Source: a virus (Duplodnaviria > Heunggongvirae > Uroviricota > Caudoviricetes). Taken from it: a DNA stretch of 10,488 bases. Shown piece by piece: positions 1 to 8,017 of the stretch; position 1 is the first letter of the stretch; the number at the start of each line of letters is the position of its first letter. A program made the position numbers and the translations under genes. The notes under the pieces were generated by a model. The model was given only the letters and a program-made list of their open reading frames with translations. It made no database searches and was not told the origin of the DNA. The DNA lies in IMG/VR virus record IMGVR_UViG_2534681663_000022. One strand, given 5' to 3'.

Positions 1-1975
<1,975 letters not shown>

Positions 1976-1978
1976 CAG

Positions 1979-2230
1979 TTAGTCCTGATTTTTATCCACC
2001 CTGAGTAGTTCGCGCAGAGCAAAGGCATCCCCTTTTCTGGCAAGCTTAAACAATGCCGCTCGTAACTCGGCTTCACCTTTCGCTCTGCCCTTACGGATGG
2101 CCGCATAAAAATCTGTCATTGCTTCCCGATTTTCTTTCAGTCGGTTCAGATCAACATCCAGAACGTCAGCGATTTGTTGTGCAGTCATCCGGCACGCTGC
2201 CAGAGACTCGACTTTCGAATACGGAATCAT
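1979..2230 (-). CDS. Small hypothetical phage protein (83 aa), possibly DNA-binding, immediately upstream of the terminase small subunit
   Basis: ATG at 2228-2230 is preceded by GGGGGTGA; the stop at 1979-1981 lies 3 nt before the terminase start. It overlaps the 3' end of the upstream gene by 65 nt in another frame. No family recognised. Confidence 0.4.
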   Translation of the reverse strand: MIPYSKVESLAACRMTAQQIADVLDVDLNRLKENREAMTDFYAAIRKGRAKGEAELRAALFKLARKGDAFALRELLRVDKNQD

Positions 2231-3122
2231 TTGTCACCCCCATTGATATGCAGGGTGTCTTCTTCCTGTATTTTTCGTGAAGGATTTTTACTGCAGCGTT
2301 GTTCCAGGTGACCTGATGGTGAATGCGTTTATGGCTGGCACCCATCAGTGAGATTTTTACGCACGACGGCGAATACATGACGGAGTAAAAACTTTTAACG
2401 TAGGTTCCGGAATCCAGATACAGCTCGGTCATTCCGCCGCTGTTTTTCTGCGTCTGTTTCTGCCCTAACTGGACAGCACCGATCGTCATAAACAATTCAC
2501 CACAGCGACCGAGATTCGTGTACGTATTCACATCCTCGTTAATGCGCCCCATGAATGAGAACGGTCGATCAACCGAACAGATAAAGCTGTTCATTGCCTT
2601 GCGTTTCACCCACGAAGCATGGCCGCCATTGTCACCAAGAAAATCCCCGCCCTGCGACATAGCGATGGAAAGCGCGGGTATTGATTCGTAATACGCCAGC
2701 ATTTCAGAAAGGATCGCATCCAGTTTCCTTATCGGGAAATAGGCCTGGTCATAGTTGCGATCCACCCGAAACTGGAACTCGTGATAATCATCATCGAGCT
2801 GAATGAAGTATTTACACCCGACCAGTTTTGCCAGGTCGAAACAGGCATTACGGGCGTAAAAAATTGAGCGGCGATCACCAAAATTATCGGCTTCGTCAAA
2901 ACGACTGGCAATATCGGCTTTGGAAAATACCAGCACCTGTTCACCAAATTCAGCCATGTACTGATGCCGTGTCTTATCTTCATCATCAACAACGATAAAA
3001 ATTTTCCCGGTATAGCCAGCACGACGCAACGTCCGGTAAGTCAGAACTTTGTCCGGTCGCCCGTGAGTCAGAATAAAGGCGCAAAAATCATCACGCATAT
3101 TCCTCCTCCTCCTCCCCGCCAT
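2166..3122 (-). CDS. Putative GT-A fold (GT2-like) glycosyltransferase, soluble, with a DxD motif
   Basis: Motif order matches the GT2 N-terminal domain: FILTHGRPD (beta1), KIFIVVDDEDKT (beta2 with DD), KYFIQLDDDYHEF (DxD). No C-terminal transmembrane helices, so unlike GtrB. Alternative ATG at 3096-3098 sits directly after a GGAGGAGGAGGAGG run and overlaps the upstream stop. Confidence 0.5.
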   Translation of the reverse strand: MAGRRRRNMRDDFCAFILTHGRPDKVLTYRTLRRAGYTGKIFIVVDDEDKTRHQYMAEFGEQVLVFSKADIASRFDEADNFGDRRSIFYARNACFDLAKLVGCKYFIQLDDDYHEFQFRVDRNYDQAYFPIRKLDAILSEMLAYYESIPALSIAMSQGGDFLGDNGGHASWVKRKAMNSFICSVDRPFSFMGRINEDVNTYTNLGRCGELFMTIGAVQLGQKQTQKNSGGMTELYLDSGTYVKSFYSVMYSPSCVKISLMGASHKRIHHQVTWNNAAVKILHEKYRKKTPCISMGVTNDSVFESRVSGSVPDDCTTNR

Positions 3123-3885
3123 GCATGATCTCCACCATGCGCTGCGTCATTCGGACAAATCCATTTTCAATAGCCTGCTGATAATCAATGATCACCAGCG
3201 CCGACTCCTCGAAAAGGCACTGAATTTCAGCGGGGGCATGAGCGTAATAGTCCGCAATTCTGCTGAAATTAAACACTGTGTGACGTTCTGCCGCACACAG
3301 GAGGAATTTCTCAATATCAGGATCAAGGGACGCCGAACGTATCCGGCTGATCAGCTCCTGAGTTTTCGTATCGTCGTACAGTTCACTGATATCCGGTTTA
3401 CCGCCCGACGGCTCATAAACAGGCGTATCAATTTTCGTCGTATACGGCTCCTCCTCATTTCCTGTACCGGGCAAAACATCCGTCAACAGTTCATCAATTT
3501 CTGTCGGGATGAAGCCTGTCAGGGAGACATCAAAATCAGCATTGATTAGGTCCGACAGCTCCATCCGCAACAGATCTTCATCCCAGCCAGCATTCATCGG
3601 CAGGCGATTATCTGCCAGGCGGGACGCCTTTTTCTGCTCATCCGTCAGGCCAGACAGAACAATGACCGGAACAGAATCCATTTTGAGCATTTCAGCCGCC
3701 ATAACACGACCGTGACCCGCAATAATTTCGCCCTTTTCGTCAATCAGCACCGGATTAGTCCAGCCGAATTGCTTAATACTTTCTACCAGTTGTGCCACCT
3801 GCTCAGGGCTGTGCGTCCTGGCGTTGTGCGCATACGGTGACAATTCTTGTAATGGGCGATAGACTATCTTTAATTTCTCGCTCAT
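3091..3885 (-). CDS. ParB/Srx-like nuclease-domain protein with an acidic C-terminal tail; no methyltransferase motifs
   Basis: ATG at 3883-3885 is preceded by AAGG. The N-terminal domain carries ParB-type motifs (KIVYRPLQELSPYAHNARTH...IIAGHGR...). The C-terminal 160 aa lack DPPY/NPPY motifs and end GGEEEEEYA. Confidence 0.75.
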   Translation of the reverse strand: MSEKLKIVYRPLQELSPYAHNARTHSPEQVAQLVESIKQFGWTNPVLIDEKGEIIAGHGRVMAAEMLKMDSVPVIVLSGLTDEQKKASRLADNRLPMNAGWDEDLLRMELSDLINADFDVSLTGFIPTEIDELLTDVLPGTGNEEEPYTTKIDTPVYEPSGGKPDISELYDDTKTQELISRIRSASLDPDIEKFLLCAAERHTVFNFSRIADYYAHAPAEIQCLFEESALVIIDYQQAIENGFVRMTQRMVEIMHGGEEEEEYA

Positions 3886-3902
3886 ACAGCCTTGCTTTAT
3901 GA

Positions 3903-3936
3903 ATAAAACGCACCCCAGCAGCCAGTGCTACTGGGG
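3903..3936 (-). terminator. Putative intrinsic terminator downstream of trkG
   Basis: Minus-strand hairpin CCCCAGTAGC-ACTG-GCTGCTGGGG (10-bp stem with one T-G wobble) followed by TGCGTTTTATT. Confidence 0.5.
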
Positions 3937-4022
3937 ACGGAGGGGTTGCTGGTAAAGTTAGGTATTGGATCAATGAGTGAGTCAACATAATATTAAACTC
4001 ACAATTATAAATCAGCCATATA

Positions 4023-5480
4023 TTAGGAGCGCCAAAAAAAACCTGAAAACAATATAATAACAGGATAAATTTCAAGGCGACCAAGAATCATAGCTATGCA
4101 CATTAAACATTTTGCAATGTCATTAAGCACTCCGAATGACGATGCAGTAGCCCCAAAACCTAATCCCATATTATTAATACATGCAGCCACTGTTGCAAAT
4201 GATGTAAGAAAATCATATCCCATACCATTTAACACCAGTATAAAAAACACCGTGAAGAGAGTATAAAGAAAAAAGAAACTCCATACAGACCTCATTACAC
4301 GATCTGTAACTATCTTCCCTCCTACATTTACACTCAACAACGCTCTGGGATGAGAAAGCTGATTTATCTCGTGTTTGCTTTGTTTGAAAAGTATAAGAAA
4401 TCGAAGTGACTTAATTCCACCACAAGTTGAACCTATACATCCCCCAAAGAAACTTGACAACAGCAAAAACACTATCGTGTGCGTGGGCCAACTTGCATAA
4501 TCCTGCGTAGCTAAACCATTATCAGTGAGCATGGAGCTGGCAAGAAAAAACGAATGAATAAAACTTCCATGCAAGTCATACATACCTATATGCCAGACCT
4601 GGAAAGAGGTAACAATGATCACCCCTAAGGCTATTAACAGAAAGAAACGAAGTTCAATATCTCTGATTAAAGGTTTTATCGTTTTCCTGCTAATAACAAT
4701 ATACCAAAGAGTGAAGTTGAAAGCCGATAGCAGGGAAAAAGAACCAGCCACCAGCTCAACCAAATAGTTATTAAAATATCCGATACTCTCGCTATGAGTT
4801 GAGAAACCACCAAGCGAAACTGTGGAAATCCCGTGACAAATAGCATCAAACAAAGGCATTCCTGCAAGTCTATAACAGACAATACAAGCAATACCTAATA
4901 AAGAATAAGTTATCCACAGTGTCCGTGACGTATCGGCCAGGCGGGGAGTGAGTTTGTCATCCTTAAATGGCCCCGGCATTTCTGACTGATAAAGCTTTGC
5001 ACCACCAATACCCAATAATGGCAATACAGCAACCGCCAGAACAATAACTCCTAAACCACCTATAAAATTTAACTGTGACCGATAGTACAAATATGCCCGA
5101 GGTAATGAACTAACATCATCAATTACAGTTGCTCCTGTTGTTGTTATTCCAGAAACCCCTTCAAACAGAGCATCAATGAACGTTAAATTAAGTTCTGAGT
5201 CAATCCATAAAGGGAATGCACTAATAACAGAAAACAAAATCCAAAACATTACAATTATAATAAACCCATCACGGGTACGTAATTGAATGCCAGATTTCTT
5301 AGTTGTATACCACGCTCCGCCACCAATGCAAAAAAATATAACGAAAGTTATAAAGAAAACGAACAGGCTTTTTTCTTTATAAAACAATGCTACAACCATT
5401 GGTGGCAACATTGAAAGACTATAGAGCCAAACCAGGAACCCACACATATGAGTAACAACTCTTACATGAGATGTATTCAT
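4023..5480 (-). CDS. trkG: Trk-system potassium uptake protein TrkG (TrkH/TrkG family membrane transporter), prophage cargo gene
   Basis: The 485-aa product from ATG 5478-5480 (MNTSHVRVVTHMCGFLVWLYSL...) matches the recalled E. coli Rac-prophage TrkG in length and sequence. It is multi-pass hydrophobic with repeated glycine-rich pore motifs. The gene and its flanks are visibly AT-rich compared with neighbouring phage genes. The ORF track starts at a TTG 18 nt upstream. Confidence 0.9.
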   Translation of the reverse strand: MNTSHVRVVTHMCGFLVWLYSLSMLPPMVVALFYKEKSLFVFFITFVIFFCIGGGAWYTTKKSGIQLRTRDGFIIIVMFWILFSVISAFPLWIDSELNLTFIDALFEGVSGITTTGATVIDDVSSLPRAYLYYRSQLNFIGGLGVIVLAVAVLPLLGIGGAKLYQSEMPGPFKDDKLTPRLADTSRTLWITYSLLGIACIVCYRLAGMPLFDAICHGISTVSLGGFSTHSESIGYFNNYLVELVAGSFSLLSAFNFTLWYIVISRKTIKPLIRDIELRFFLLIALGVIIVTSFQVWHIGMYDLHGSFIHSFFLASSMLTDNGLATQDYASWPTHTIVFLLLSSFFGGCIGSTCGGIKSLRFLILFKQSKHEINQLSHPRALLSVNVGGKIVTDRVMRSVWSFFFLYTLFTVFFILVLNGMGYDFLTSFATVAACINNMGLGFGATASSFGVLNDIAKCLMCIAMILGRLEIYPVIILFSGFFWRS

Positions 5481-5617
5481 ATCTAAATATTCTTTCAATT
5501 ATAACCACCTTGCTGCAATATTATGATTATACTGTATAAAATTTAACTCCTCTTAGATCTTACTTCACTGTTCCTTATGAAACAATCATCAAAATGAATC
5601 ATATTGTAGTTAAGATT

Positions 5618-7042: not shown

Positions 7043-7438
7043 CTAACCTCGCATGTCAAAGCCAGATTTCTGAAAATCTCTGTAGACTTCCGGATTGTTG
7101 AAGGCCGGAAATTTGGCTTTATGAGCTGCGGACTTTATCGCTTCGCAATAGGCTTTATCACCGTTACTGGTAGATATTTTTAACGCCGTGCCATCCTGAG
7201 AGAATTCCATATGCAACCTGCATTTTTTCCCTTTCCAGTTATGCGGCTCATCAAGTTTGGCATTAATTGCAGCTCTGATTCCCCGCGCTTGCGCCCCCCA
7301 TTCATCCTGATCATCCCAGCGTCCTGAACTGCAACTACCTGTAGCAGTAGTTTTGTGGCAATCTGAAGGGTGTAAAGGTGTGCATCCCGCAACAAAACCG
7401 ACCCAAAAAGTCAACATAACGATTTTCTTTAATCCCAC
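7043..7438 (-). CDS. Lipoprotein with a divergent TolA domain III-like C-terminal domain (paralog of the gene at 7589-8017)
   Basis: GTG at 7436-7438 is preceded by AGGAG at 6-nt spacing. Signal peptide MGLKKIVMLTFWVGFVAGC has lipobox VAGC, Thr at +2. The C-terminal segment IRAAINAKL...GKKCRLHMEFSQDGTALKI...YCEAIKSAAHKAKFPAFNNPEVYRDFQKSGFD aligns with the other lipoprotein and with the TolA C-terminus. Confidence 0.65.
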   Translation of the reverse strand: MGLKKIVMLTFWVGFVAGCTPLHPSDCHKTTATGSCSSGRWDDQDEWGAQARGIRAAINAKLDEPHNWKGKKCRLHMEFSQDGTALKISTSNGDKAYCEAIKSAAHKAKFPAFNNPEVYRDFQKSGFDMRG

Positions 7439-7588: not shown

Positions 7589-8017
7589 TCAGGGTTTAAA
7601 ATCCAGCACCCCATTTTGAAATACTTTATATACTTCCGGCGAAGGGGGGGCAGGTATATCAGCATTCTTTATCGCATTCATCGCTTCACGACATAAATCG
7701 AGGTCTCCACTTTCTCTTTTAACCTCCAGTAGAAGGCCATTCGGGGCCATATGCATTCTCAGTGTACACTCTTTTCCTGAATACTTACTCGCATCCCCGA
7801 ACTGTTTTTCGATGGCGCTCTTGATTTGATGGGCATACAGACGGATATCCTCACTAACATCAGAAGTACGTTCAGATGAACTCACATACTGTGTCTCTAT
7901 TGCTTTATCGGAGTAATATGATGTACGGTCATGATAATTTGTCGATACAGCATCAGTGCACCCGATAATAATCCCACTAATAATCAACGTAAGAATTGAT
8001 GCGCTACGAAAACCCAT
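7589..8017 (-). CDS. Lipoprotein carrying a TolA domain III-like C-terminal domain
   Basis: ATG at 8015-8017 is preceded by GAGG. Signal peptide has lipobox IIGC, Thr at +2, then a Ser/Thr/Tyr-rich linker. The C-terminal 85 aa (IRLYAHQIKSAIEKQFGDASKYSGKECTLRMHMAPNGLLLEVKRESGDLDLCREAMNAIKNADIPAPPSPEVYKVFQNGVLDFKP) closely parallel the recalled E. coli TolA C-terminus (..YAGQIKSAIESKFYDASSYAGKTCTLRIKLAPDGMLLDIKPEGGDPALCQAALAAAKLAKIPKPPSQAVYEVFKNAPLDFKP). Confidence 0.75.
   Translation of the reverse strand: MGFRSASILTLIISGIIIGCTDAVSTNYHDRTSYYSDKAIETQYVSSSERTSDVSEDIRLYAHQIKSAIEKQFGDASKYSGKECTLRMHMAPNGLLLEVKRESGDLDLCREAMNAIKNADIPAPPSPEVYKVFQNGVLDFKP

Follow-up and report, generated by a model that had tools for sequence, protein, structure and literature searches.

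A conserved ParB-like partner of a TAGT-family glycosyltransferase ahead of the packaging genes of a Rac-type Escherichia coli prophage: a possible DNA glycosylation module

A Rac-type prophage of Escherichia coli carries, just ahead of its DNA-packaging genes, two overlapping genes for a soluble nucleotide-sugar transferase of the TAGT (TET-associated glycosyltransferase) family and for a ParB-like partner, whose C-terminal domain is, judging by its distribution and co-variation, an obligatory, co-evolving companion of this TAGT clade. We propose, with about an even chance of being right, that the two proteins form a self-contained module for DNA glycosylation that is expressed late and depends on an adaptor, comparable to the ParB-activated thymine dioxygenases of phages. 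The window, i.e. the whole stretch of DNA analysed, comprises 10,488 nucleotides, and the argument rests on the following features:

1235..1975, minus strand: terminase small subunit gene, truncated (246 aa versus 364 aa intact; Pfam Terminase_2; phrog_51, 8.2e-66)
1979..2230, minus strand: small HTH ORF, 83 aa from the first ATG, resembling part of a terminase small subunit (phrog_309, 8.3e-23)
2166..3098, minus strand: TAGT-family GT-A glycosyltransferase, 310 aa, predicted to be soluble
2787..2795, minus strand: DDD (D102-D104), the DxD metal/nucleotide-sugar motif of the GT-A fold, invariant in the alignments A1 and A2
3091..3117, minus strand: coupling junction with an 8-nt overlap, ATGCGTGA, as read from the sequence
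3091..3885, minus strand: partner gene (ynaK-type), 264 aa, with ParB/Srx N-domain, disordered linker and conserved C-terminal putative adaptor domain (ORF call; Pfam ParB_N, phrog_620)
3136..3444, minus strand: all-helical conserved domain at the C-terminus (residues about 148-250), which invariably accompanies this TAGT clade
3394..3423, minus strand: linker motif P155-V-Y157-E-P-S-G-G-K-P164 with near-invariant Y157
3466..3885, minus strand: ParB/Srx-fold N-domain, residues 1 to about 140, of a clade otherwise fused to phage DNA methyltransferases
3913..3936, minus strand: terminator-like hairpin after the trkG moron, directly upstream of the partner gene

A preliminary description of this DNA had noted a tight pair of a ParB-like and a glycosyltransferase gene before the packaging genes. 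This pair is real: it lies on the minus strand within the gene order Q, holin, lysozyme, Rz, trkG, partner, TAGT, terminase, and the TAGT start codon (ATG, 3096-3098) is preceded by a Shine-Dalgarno-like purine-rich run (3100-3117) and followed by the partner's stop codon (TGA, 3091-3093). Judged from this junction, the TAGT gene is translationally coupled to the partner gene. The first TAGT residue aligned by the HMM falls between -14 and +28 nt from the partner stop in 58 of 59 non-redundant loci. The 318 aa previously given for the transferase are possible via an in-frame ATG further upstream, at 3122; the length called from the ATG at 3096-3098 is 310 aa. The pair itself lacks a convincing promoter and is therefore probably transcribed by read-through, as part of the Q-dependent late operon. 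A search for parS-like repeats around the pair within the window gave just short two-copy matches, not above chance. On the terminase side, the small HTH ORF is 69 aa long as annotated in related phages and is a 210-nt CDS in the intact phage L004; the alignment of the terminase small subunit region with this phage stops at window position 1250.

Profile HMMs, which had been suggested for checking both proteins, place the transferase within GT-A/TAGT and assign ParB_N and, over its full length, phrog_620 to the partner. The transferase matches Pfam family PF20691 (TAGT) with 121.5 bits (cut-off 27.5; E=6.1e-35) over profile positions 4-205 of 205, and phrog_842 with 1.5e-103. The initial GT-A/GT2 assignment is thus narrowed: the GT-A fold and the DDD motif stand, whereas a generic GT2 enzyme is replaced by a TAGT member. 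Acidic motifs are present downstream of the DxD motif, and the resulting R...DDD...ED[YF] pattern is the one reported for phage DNA GT-A enzymes (10.1101/2023.12.21.572611). A structure comparison gave a match to a T4-like TAGT member (E=1.8e-7); sequence similarity to the T2/T6-type enzymes is too low for BLAST, by which only the Aeromonas Ah1 clade was matched, at 24% identity. Residues 215-285 of the transferase, although conserved, have a poor structure model. No hydrophobic or membrane segment was found in the transferase, as had been stated for the lack of a membrane anchor. These profile and motif matches identify the product of 310 aa as a soluble nucleotide-sugar transferase of the TAGT family and GT-A fold, its catalytic motifs being intact. 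An association with TET/JBP (5mYOX), from which the family takes its name, or with an acceptor-supplying hydroxymethylase was found neither in the complete prophage nor among the listed families of upstream neighbours; it is not needed for TAGT membership, as 288 of 753 TAGT phages are 'solitary' (PMC13216743).

The partner is annotated in E. coli genomes as ynaK or as 'ParB/Srx family N-terminal domain-containing protein'; a literature search gave no paper on the function of ynaK. Its description as a ParB/Srx-like protein without a fused methyltransferase is borne out, as ParB_N is the only domain detected, though this N-domain is of the methyltransferase-fused clade (phrog_498 / PADLOC MTase_II; 1.6e-49 and 4.8e-38). 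The protein is, however, not ParB alone, since a conserved C-terminal domain of about 110 aa is added, for which no match was found in Pfam or the PDB and whose structure model is of low confidence (pLDDT about 50-80). In the N-domain, the candidate nucleotide-binding residues N21, G57, R60, D92, N93, W101, and D102 are 90-100% conserved; the arginine of G-x-x-R is substituted in two distant lineages (Porphyromonas, Nocardia). The linker motif overlaps a segment predicted with pLDDT below 50 (residues 136-160), and its Tyr 157 column is at least 90% conserved across 59 non-redundant partners, including those that consist of the C-domain only. With ParABS ParB, Noc and KorB, the partner shares the ParB/Srx N-domain fold and partial GERRxRA and EN boxes; it differs from them in having neither a ParA nor an HTH DNA-binding domain. 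A partition (ParABS) ParB was consequently rejected: no parA exists in the window or the prophage, and TIGR00180 scores 38.2 bits (cut-off 58.45). A component of anti-phage defence was likewise rejected, as PADLOC is silent on the glycosyltransferase and matches the partner only as the N-domain of methyltransferase fusions. A lead to M.EcoGII was dropped, since the papers on it are silent about a ParB domain.

In 237 of 241 related loci, a gene with the C-domain lies directly upstream of the transferase gene; after de-duplication (clusters at 80% identity), this holds for 59 of 64. The co-variation between TAGT and C-domain is r=0.95, compared with 0.50-0.54 between TAGT and the ParB N-domain and 0.42 between TAGT and the neighbouring TerL, which together with the adjacency points to a cognate pairing of the partner with the adjacent enzyme. 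Values of dN/dS are 0.06-0.07 for TAGT and C-domain and 0.10-0.22 for the N-domain; by this measure, both genes are under strong purifying selection. The C-domain alone, without the ParB N-domain, can accompany the transferase: short C-only partners were found with a TAGT away from terminases, in the replication regions of large phages. Natural fusions of partner and TAGT were detected in none of 248 loci, nor were they suggested by the lengths of C-domain proteins. In all, the C-domain proteins form roughly 1200 clusters. The pair is present in phages of Escherichia, Lactobacillus, Nocardia, Porphyromonas, Vibrio, and Haloarcula, with cultured phages among the latter five. Because it spans archaeal, Gram-positive and Gram-negative hosts, its substrate must be universal, which fits DNA. 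Downstream of the pair, the terminases (TerS/TerL) are of at least three Pfam types and the portals of four; going by these gene contexts, the pair stands at the head of packaging modules whose terminases and portals are unrelated in type from phage to phage.

A phage DNA dioxygenase acting on dsDNA requires a ParB-like activator, and in the case of ParB176/5mYOX176 this activator is likewise a ParB homologue of phage origin that joins a nucleotide-binding N-domain to a C-terminal domain and has no recognisable DNA-binding domain (PMC13229309). The partner studied here also combines an NTP-binding-type N-domain with a C-terminal domain and has no canonical HTH DNA-binding domain. The ParB176 gene lies beside that of the DNA-modifying enzyme and shows cognate-pair specificity, to which the adjacency in 59 of 64 loci and r=0.95 correspond here. 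The two ParB proteins are likened by their descriptions, and the pair may work like the ParB-activated dioxygenase pairs; it falls outside the published class, because its client is a GT-A glycosyltransferase and not a 5-methylpyrimidine dioxygenase of the Fe/2OG type. A second parallel is given by the prophage fusions of ParB_N with DNA methyltransferases (phrog_498; PADLOC MTase_II; PMC12704722), which have the same N-domain sub-type and the same late-operon site near the terminase. The logic is presumably the same, a ParB module being attached to a DNA-modifying enzyme; in contrast to the fusions, the enzyme is here a separate polypeptide, a dedicated adaptor domain is proposed, and the group transferred would be a glycosyl instead of a methyl group. 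A role of ParB in directing modification machinery during packaging was proposed by Iyer in 2013, as cited in PMC8256090 and PMC13229309.

In the mechanism we favour, the two-protein module would act on phage DNA at about the moment when it is packaged. The ParB-type N-domain would engage double-stranded DNA; the grounds are that its clade is otherwise fused to methyltransferases and that the G-x-x-R and D-N residues of the nucleotide site are kept. It could be an NTP-gated clamp which gives the enzyme access to DNA or residence time on it, comparable to ParB176 as activator of 5mYOX176. The C-domain, perhaps together with the Tyr motif, would dock the transferase, and the sugar mark might shield progeny DNA from the restriction systems or other defences of the next host.

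Several points on the acceptor speak against this proposal. To our knowledge, glycosylation of an unmodified DNA base is without precedent, and the DNA-sugar routes we know of all first install a hydroxymethyl (or hydroxy) group. The whole Rac-type prophage contains no 5mYOX/TET, no thymidylate-synthase-type hydroxymethylase and no other acceptor-making enzyme. The T2/T6 beta-glucosyl-HMC-alpha-glucosyltransferase resembles our transferase in PF20691 family, GT-A fold, solubility, and phage origin. The T-even enzymes, however, add a second glucose to glucosyl-5hmC from the dCMP hydroxymethylase and alpha-GT pathway, the genes of which are missing here: dCMP hydroxymethylase (gp42) and alpha-/beta-GT (GT-B) are absent from the prophage gene list. 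Moreover, T-even-type and large-phage TAGTs have no C-domain partner gene, unlike this module. The GT-As associated with TET/5mYOX in phages likewise show R...DDD...ED[YF] and a post-replicative setting, often near ParB and terminase (PMC8256090; 10.1101/2023.12.21.572611); in their clusters a C5-methyltransferase and/or 5mYOX supplies the 5hmC/5hmU acceptor, whereas our module has neither. Contigs with a glycosyltransferase but without 5mYOX/ThyS are regarded as less obviously DNA-modifying by Pyle et al. (10.1101/2023.12.21.572611). The catalytic domains of base J glucosyltransferase (JGT) and GREB1 are related GT-A domains (PMC7968844; Pyle et al.); JGT depends on 5hmU made by JBP, GREB1 modifies a protein, and both lack a ParB-type partner, unlike the enzyme described here. 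When about 725 proteins encoded next to the pair at 64 non-redundant loci were clustered, only the partner and packaging genes proved conserved, and a hidden third enzyme in relatives was rejected. In Pfam scans of the upstream neighbours at these loci, Tet_JBP is absent, to about E=5e-4, from the 25 most frequent or strongest families listed, a scope in which weak singletons could be missed. A single ThyA among the neighbours looks like an ordinary thymidylate synthase, and no acceptor-making candidate is encoded in small temperate genomes listed in full, such as those of phi jlb1, c5, and the Rac-type phage. In the papers searched, modified DNA was reported for no phage carrying the pair. 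We also consider, as conceivable though rather unlikely, an undescribed glycosylation in which the sugar would be placed directly on an unmodified base, a DNA end or the backbone during packaging, or, in a glycogenin-like manner, on the partner's invariant tyrosine. The C-domain would in either case be a new enzyme-docking domain and, if this is true, would make a ParB/CTPase-fold switch a glycosyltransferase carrier.

Of the competing explanations, the glycosylation of a protein is the most credible and a live rival, although we judge it unlikely. The TAGT would add sugar to its own partner (at the Tyr or a nearby Ser/Thr of P-x-Y-E-P-[ST]-G, as in glycogenin-like priming) or to a packaging or virion protein, with the partner serving as substrate or scaffold. 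The near-invariant Y157, which resides in a disordered linker of every partner type including the C-only ones, would suit this role, although a docking peptide would equally predict a conserved linker motif. A DNA acceptor pathway is not present, and the TAGT-related GREB1 domain O-GlcNAcylates ER-alpha (PMC7968844); nevertheless, the bacterial and viral TAGT members of known activity all use DNA-linked acceptors (PMC13216743, PMC8256090). One related contig has four GT2 genes in its head module, so virion glycosylation occurs in such phages. Against a protein substrate speak the clade of the N-domain, otherwise fused to DNA methyltransferases, and the proximity of replication genes and of a DNA polymerase III beta clamp in relatives.

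It is less probable still, and in our view distinctly doubtful, that the transferase needs 5hmC, 5hmU or a base already glucosylated, supplied by an enzyme whose gene lies elsewhere, by a divergent 5mYOX that goes unrecognised or by another phage during co-infection; in the E. coli prophage the pair would then be idle or would modify nothing but foreign DNA that is itself modified. Acceptors known for this family are hydroxymethyl-pyrimidines and the glucosides derived from them (PMC13216743, PMC8256090), the Pfam TET/JBP model misses thousands of 5mYOX-like sequences (PMC13229309), and the absence of Tet_JBP among the neighbours covers the 25 families mentioned. An idle pair is, however, hard to reconcile with strong purifying selection (dN/dS about 0.06) and with matches to the region in 1619 of 5426 complete E. 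coli genomes; the lack of a conserved third gene in the 64 non-redundant loci and of a candidate in the temperate genomes listed in full also speaks against this dependence.

There is very little chance that the pair is a packaging accessory without base modification, the ParB-like protein being a terminase nuclease or pac/cos-site binder and the GT-like protein having a structural or regulatory role. The constant position ahead of TerS/TerL and the frequent annotation of ParB-like 'nucleases' beside terminases would agree with it; the GT-A catalytic motifs are invariant and strongly constrained, though, C-only partners reside with TAGTs in replication regions, and the module travels with non-homologous terminase types and is therefore not part of any one packaging machine. 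Least credible of all, and already disfavoured when O-antigen conversion was set aside for a DNA- or protein-glycosylating module, a preference supported by the TAGT assignment, the lack of membrane segments, and the gene context, is a modification of cell-envelope glycans (lysogenic conversion or superinfection exclusion, cf. prophage TarP for wall teichoic acid and Gtr for O-antigen): gtrA/gtrC-like ORFs are missing, the gene follows the lysis genes within the late operon and is not a lysogeny-expressed moron, the envelopes of the haloarchaeal, actinobacterial, Bacteroidota, Firmicutes, and proteobacterial hosts have no common acceptor, and the obligatory ParB-type partner would be left unexplained.

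The ParB association and the TAGT family have already been published; neither the adaptor domain nor the arrangement without a hydroxylase seems to have been described before. Sugar-modified DNA is a major counter-defence of phages and a source of enzymes for the chemistry of epigenetic sequencing, and a 2026 survey assigned no known function to the 'solitary' TAGTs of 288 of 753 TAGT-encoding phages (PMC13216743). As this locus shows, a large share of such enzymes are not truly solitary: they have an obligatory co-evolving adaptor, usually with a ParB/CTPase-fold domain, and head the packaging operons of bacterial and archaeal viruses. A new DNA modification, a ParB-gated enzyme delivery or a phage protein-glycosylation system would each be an informative outcome, and ParB-gated delivery of DNA-modifying enzymes, if true, would extend the single dioxygenase precedent. 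With matches in so many complete E. coli genomes (867 of them with at least 80% of the region, in Rac-type prophages), the question of the acceptor is directly testable in the easiest host.

The N-terminal extension of large-phage TAGTs (Ah1, POP12, PTm1, Kuja) was considered as a fused C-domain and rejected, as no homology was detectable by HMM (E above 0.03). Only a short W-x-x-M-P-x-[FYH] motif in this extension recalls the P-x-Y-E-P of the partner. Some relatives of the pair have extra genes, namely a second TAGT, a radical-SAM enzyme, a methyltransferase, or a DNA polymerase III beta clamp.

The window falls in a lambdoid E. coli prophage of the Rac type and takes in its late region. All genes lie on the minus strand in the order DUF1367, YbcO, Q antiterminator, two TolA-C-terminal-domain lipoproteins, holin, lysozyme, Rz, trkG moron, ParB-like gene, glycosyltransferase gene, small HTH ORF and terminase small subunit. 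Positions 1900-4100 recur with 100% identity in many E. coli chromosomes, whose annotations name the genes ynaK and trkG; E. coli K-12 Rac has trkG in the same placement, with presumably only a truncated ynaK left beside it. The features of this region are:

1 to about 1249, minus strand: IS3-family element, running off the window and lying inside the terminase small-subunit gene
1-747, minus strand: IS3-family orfB (rve)
867-1214, minus strand: IS3-family orfA (HTH_Tnp_1)
1235-1975, minus strand: terminase small subunit gene, truncated
1979-2230, minus strand: small HTH ORF
2166-3098, minus strand: glycosyltransferase gene
3091-3885, minus strand: ParB-like gene (the partner)
3394-3423, minus strand: P-x-Y-E-P linker motif, partner residues 155-164, inside a predicted disordered linker
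3913-3936, minus strand: terminator-like hairpin 3' of trkG
4023-5498, minus strand: trkG potassium-transporter moron with its own terminator, between lysis cassette and ParB-glycosyltransferase pair

Homology to the intact relative vB_EcoS-683R6 ends at position 1250. The IS3-family insertion leaves only 246 of the 364 codons of the terminase small subunit; DNA packaging has probably been lost in this prophage copy, though the pair is still intact. No convincing promoter was found upstream of the pair, which is therefore most simply read as part of the Q-dependent late transcript.

As the preliminary description had stated, the stop of the ParB-like ORF (264 aa) overlaps the start region of the glycosyltransferase gene: The ATG at 3096-3098 overlaps it as ATGCGTGA, and a GGAGG-rich run lies 5' of this ATG. 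The length of 318 aa given for the downstream ORF is correct from its first ATG; the form in databases and phage annotations begins at 3096-3098 and has 310 aa. The motifs quoted for this ORF are present. It matches Pfam family PF20691 (TET-associated glycosyltransferase, TAGT) with 121.5 bits (cut-off 27.5) and phrog_842 with 1.5e-103; its matches among viral models include TAGT proteins and a T4-like beta-glucosyl-HMC-alpha-glucosyltransferase. Residues R14, DDD102-104, QGGD149-152, NEDVN187-191 and RxHH258-261 are invariant in the enzyme alignments and agree with R...DDD...ED[YF], the signature of phage DNA GT-A enzymes (10.1101/2023.12.21.572611). The PF20691 match and this signature thus bear out the original GT-A call, whereas the generic GT2 label gives way to a known DNA-modification family, which also takes in the T2/T6 enzyme adding a second glucose to glucosyl-5hmC (PMC13216743, PMC13390438). 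By sequence and fold the enzyme is a TAGT; only the name-giving TET association is missing, which is not required for membership.

Aligned to Noc/ParB, the partner reads GHGR in the GERRxRA box and DN in the EN box. Its N-domain belongs to a sub-type that elsewhere occurs as a fusion with phage DNA methyltransferases (phrog_498, 1.6e-49; PADLOC MTase_II, 4.8e-38; both span residues 3-144 only), and such fusions have been described (PMC12704722). Of 39 non-redundant N-domains, 35-39 retain the putative nucleotide-site residues N21, G57, R60, D92 and N93. A partition ParB was ruled out, with TIGR00180 below cut-off, no ParA and no HTH domain. When partners from cultured phages were aligned, a further conserved region without a Pfam or PDB match emerged, in which the P-x-Y-E-P motif is followed by a helical domain of ~100 aa (C-domain) with the pattern FL..AA.RH..F.F..IA.YYAH...E.Q.L.E.SALVIID. 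This region is common to E. coli, Lactobacillus phi jlb1 and c5, Nocardia NTR1, Porphyromonas phage005 and the haloarchaeal virus HHTV-2. With this region alone as the query, a search of 1.84 billion representatives gave 1191 clusters (1012 at E <= 1e-10); the domain nearly always forms the C-terminus of ParB_N proteins of 250-300 aa, a minority being C-domain-only (C-only) proteins of 120-190 aa. The motif's tyrosine (Y157), near-invariant in 59 aligned partners including C-only ones, could mark a docking peptide or a glycosylation acceptor.

For comparison, 248 loci were taken from phage records and from three IMG/VR scans that used the E. coli, Lactobacillus and Porphyromonas enzymes as seeds; ORFs were called mechanically and scanned with custom HMMs for TAGT, ParB N-domain and C-domain. 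In these loci, which are similarity-ranked samples and not a census, a C-domain gene lies directly upstream on the same strand in 237 of the 241 cases with room upstream (218 with, 19 without N-domain). After collapsing TAGT at 80% identity, 59 of 64 clusters have a partner. The first aligned TAGT residue is located -14 to +28 nt from the partner stop in 58/59 loci; tight coupling is thus conserved. Among 57 loci, pairwise identity correlates with that of TAGT at r=0.95 for the C-domain and 0.54 for the ParB N-domain; when the comparison is restricted to 27 loci with a common TerL family, r is 0.95 for the C-domain, 0.50 for the N-domain and 0.42 for TerL. Where dS is unsaturated, TAGT and C-domain have a dN/dS of 0.06-0.07, the N-domain one of 0.10-0.22. 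Pairing counts, co-variation and dN/dS therefore indicate that the C-domain, rather than the ParB domain, is the obligatory, co-evolving companion of TAGT; the ParB domain is often added to it and has more freedom to evolve.

The next conserved neighbours of the pair are packaging genes of unrelated types (large subunits Terminase_3, Terminase_6N and TerL_ATPase; portals SPP1, HK97, P22 and DUF4055). A verified TerL cluster follows <=4 genes downstream in 34/47 loci having both partner domains, and in Lactobacillus phage c5 the pair comes first after the cos site. The six short C-only partners are mostly away from TerL, e.g. among the replication genes of the 191-kb Vibrio phage pv27. Some C-only clusters have an extra second TAGT, a radical-SAM enzyme, a SAM methyltransferase or a DNA polymerase III beta clamp; the first two arrangements below, from metagenomic relatives, suggest larger glycan-building DNA-modification clusters:

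L103, 5649-8659: C-only partner, two TAGT paralogues, flanking radical-SAM/SPASM enzyme
L104, 3988-7964: C-only partner, two TAGT paralogues, flanking SAM methyltransferase and DNA polymerase III beta clamp
L101, 6840-7793: radical-SAM gene immediately adjoining the partner-TAGT pair
L106, 4392-5249: radical-SAM gene immediately adjoining the partner-TAGT pair

We see an even chance that the pair performs a two-protein glycosylation of DNA, late and around the time of packaging, with the partner as adaptor for TAGT. The genes encode a soluble TAGT with intact catalytic motifs and an obligatory partner domain that co-evolves with it; they are translationally coupled and lie in the late operon ahead of the packaging genes. 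The C-domain would dock TAGT, possibly together with the invariant-Tyr linker peptide; the ParB-type N-domain, perhaps an NTP-gated clamp, would engage DNA and thereby let the enzyme reach the duplex, and the resulting sugar mark may protect the packaged DNA. As the pair is common to viruses of haloarchaea, Actinomycetota, Bacillota, Bacteroidota and Pseudomonadota, the acceptor must be shared by all, which favours DNA. The main weakness of this reading is that we know of no acceptor on DNA lacking a hydroxymethyl group.

This missing DNA acceptor, like the GREB1 precedent (PMC7968844), speaks for protein glycosylation, including a glycogenin-like modification of the partner's own Y157, which we nevertheless regard as unlikely. 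Somewhat less probable still is a hydroxymethyl-dependent enzyme whose acceptor-maker is encoded elsewhere or went unrecognised; strong selection on the pair and the lack of a conserved third gene argue against it. The complete Rac-type prophage contains no TET/5mYOX or thymidylate-synthase-like gene. Among the upstream neighbours of 64 loci, one ordinary-looking ThyA occurs (locus L171) and no Tet_JBP was among the 25 families listed per alignment-mode Pfam scan, a hydroxylase negative limited by the fact that divergent 5mYOXs can evade PF12851 (PMC13229309). A non-catalytic packaging role and envelope glycan conversion are both very improbable; the earlier statement that there is no membrane anchor stands, as neither protein has a hydrophobic segment.

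For DNA glycosylation by the pair, the closest experimental precedent is the 5mYOX176 system, a phage thymine dioxygenase needing a ParB-like activator on dsDNA; this activator, too, combines a nucleotide-binding domain at the N-terminus with a C-terminal domain and has no DNA-binding domain (PMC13229309). The pair may work like ParB-activated dioxygenase systems and ParB-methyltransferase fusions but, because its client enzyme differs, falls outside both classes. A role of ParB proteins in guiding modification machinery while DNA is packaged was first proposed by Iyer et al. 2013, as cited in PMC8256090 and PMC13229309. The literature already describes the TAGT family, the loose linkage of its members to ParB and terminase genes (10.1101/2023.12.21.572611; PMC8256090) and many 'solitary' TAGTs of unknown function (PMC13216743). 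In the available literature we found neither the dedicated C-terminal adaptor domain and its near-obligatory pairing and co-variation with this TAGT clade, nor the C-only forms or the systematic absence of an acceptor-making enzyme. The finding is easy to test, since Rac-type prophages with this region occur in about 16-30% of complete E. coli genomes.

TAGTs of large lytic phages are extended at the N-terminus by 100-140 aa, in which a W-x-x-M-P-x-[FYH] motif is conserved:

L254, 4689-5888: Aeromonas Ah1/Aeh1
L255, 2315-3730: Tenacibaculum PTm1
L256, 2288-4976: Vibrio Kuja, with two tandem TAGT copies
L257, 2495-3658: Vibrio 1.124.O
L258, 2492-3646: Pectobacterium POP12

The Ah1 extension reads MPHYEPKD and resembles TPVYEPSG of the partner; HMM-level homology between these extensions and the C-domain was not detected. 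On a contig with a ParB-TAGT pair (L249, 17837-20316; also L250), four consecutive GT2-family genes just past the major capsid gene may point to virion glycosylation. In the window, the moron slot between Q and holin, which holds tRNA genes in vB_EcoS-683R6, is occupied by two adjoining small lipoprotein-like ORFs with a TolA C-terminal domain:

7043-7438, minus strand: Pfam TolA, 1.3e-14
7589-8017, minus strand: Pfam TolA, 2.4e-23

A decoy role against TolA-dependent colicins or filamentous phages is conceivable for these lipoproteins.
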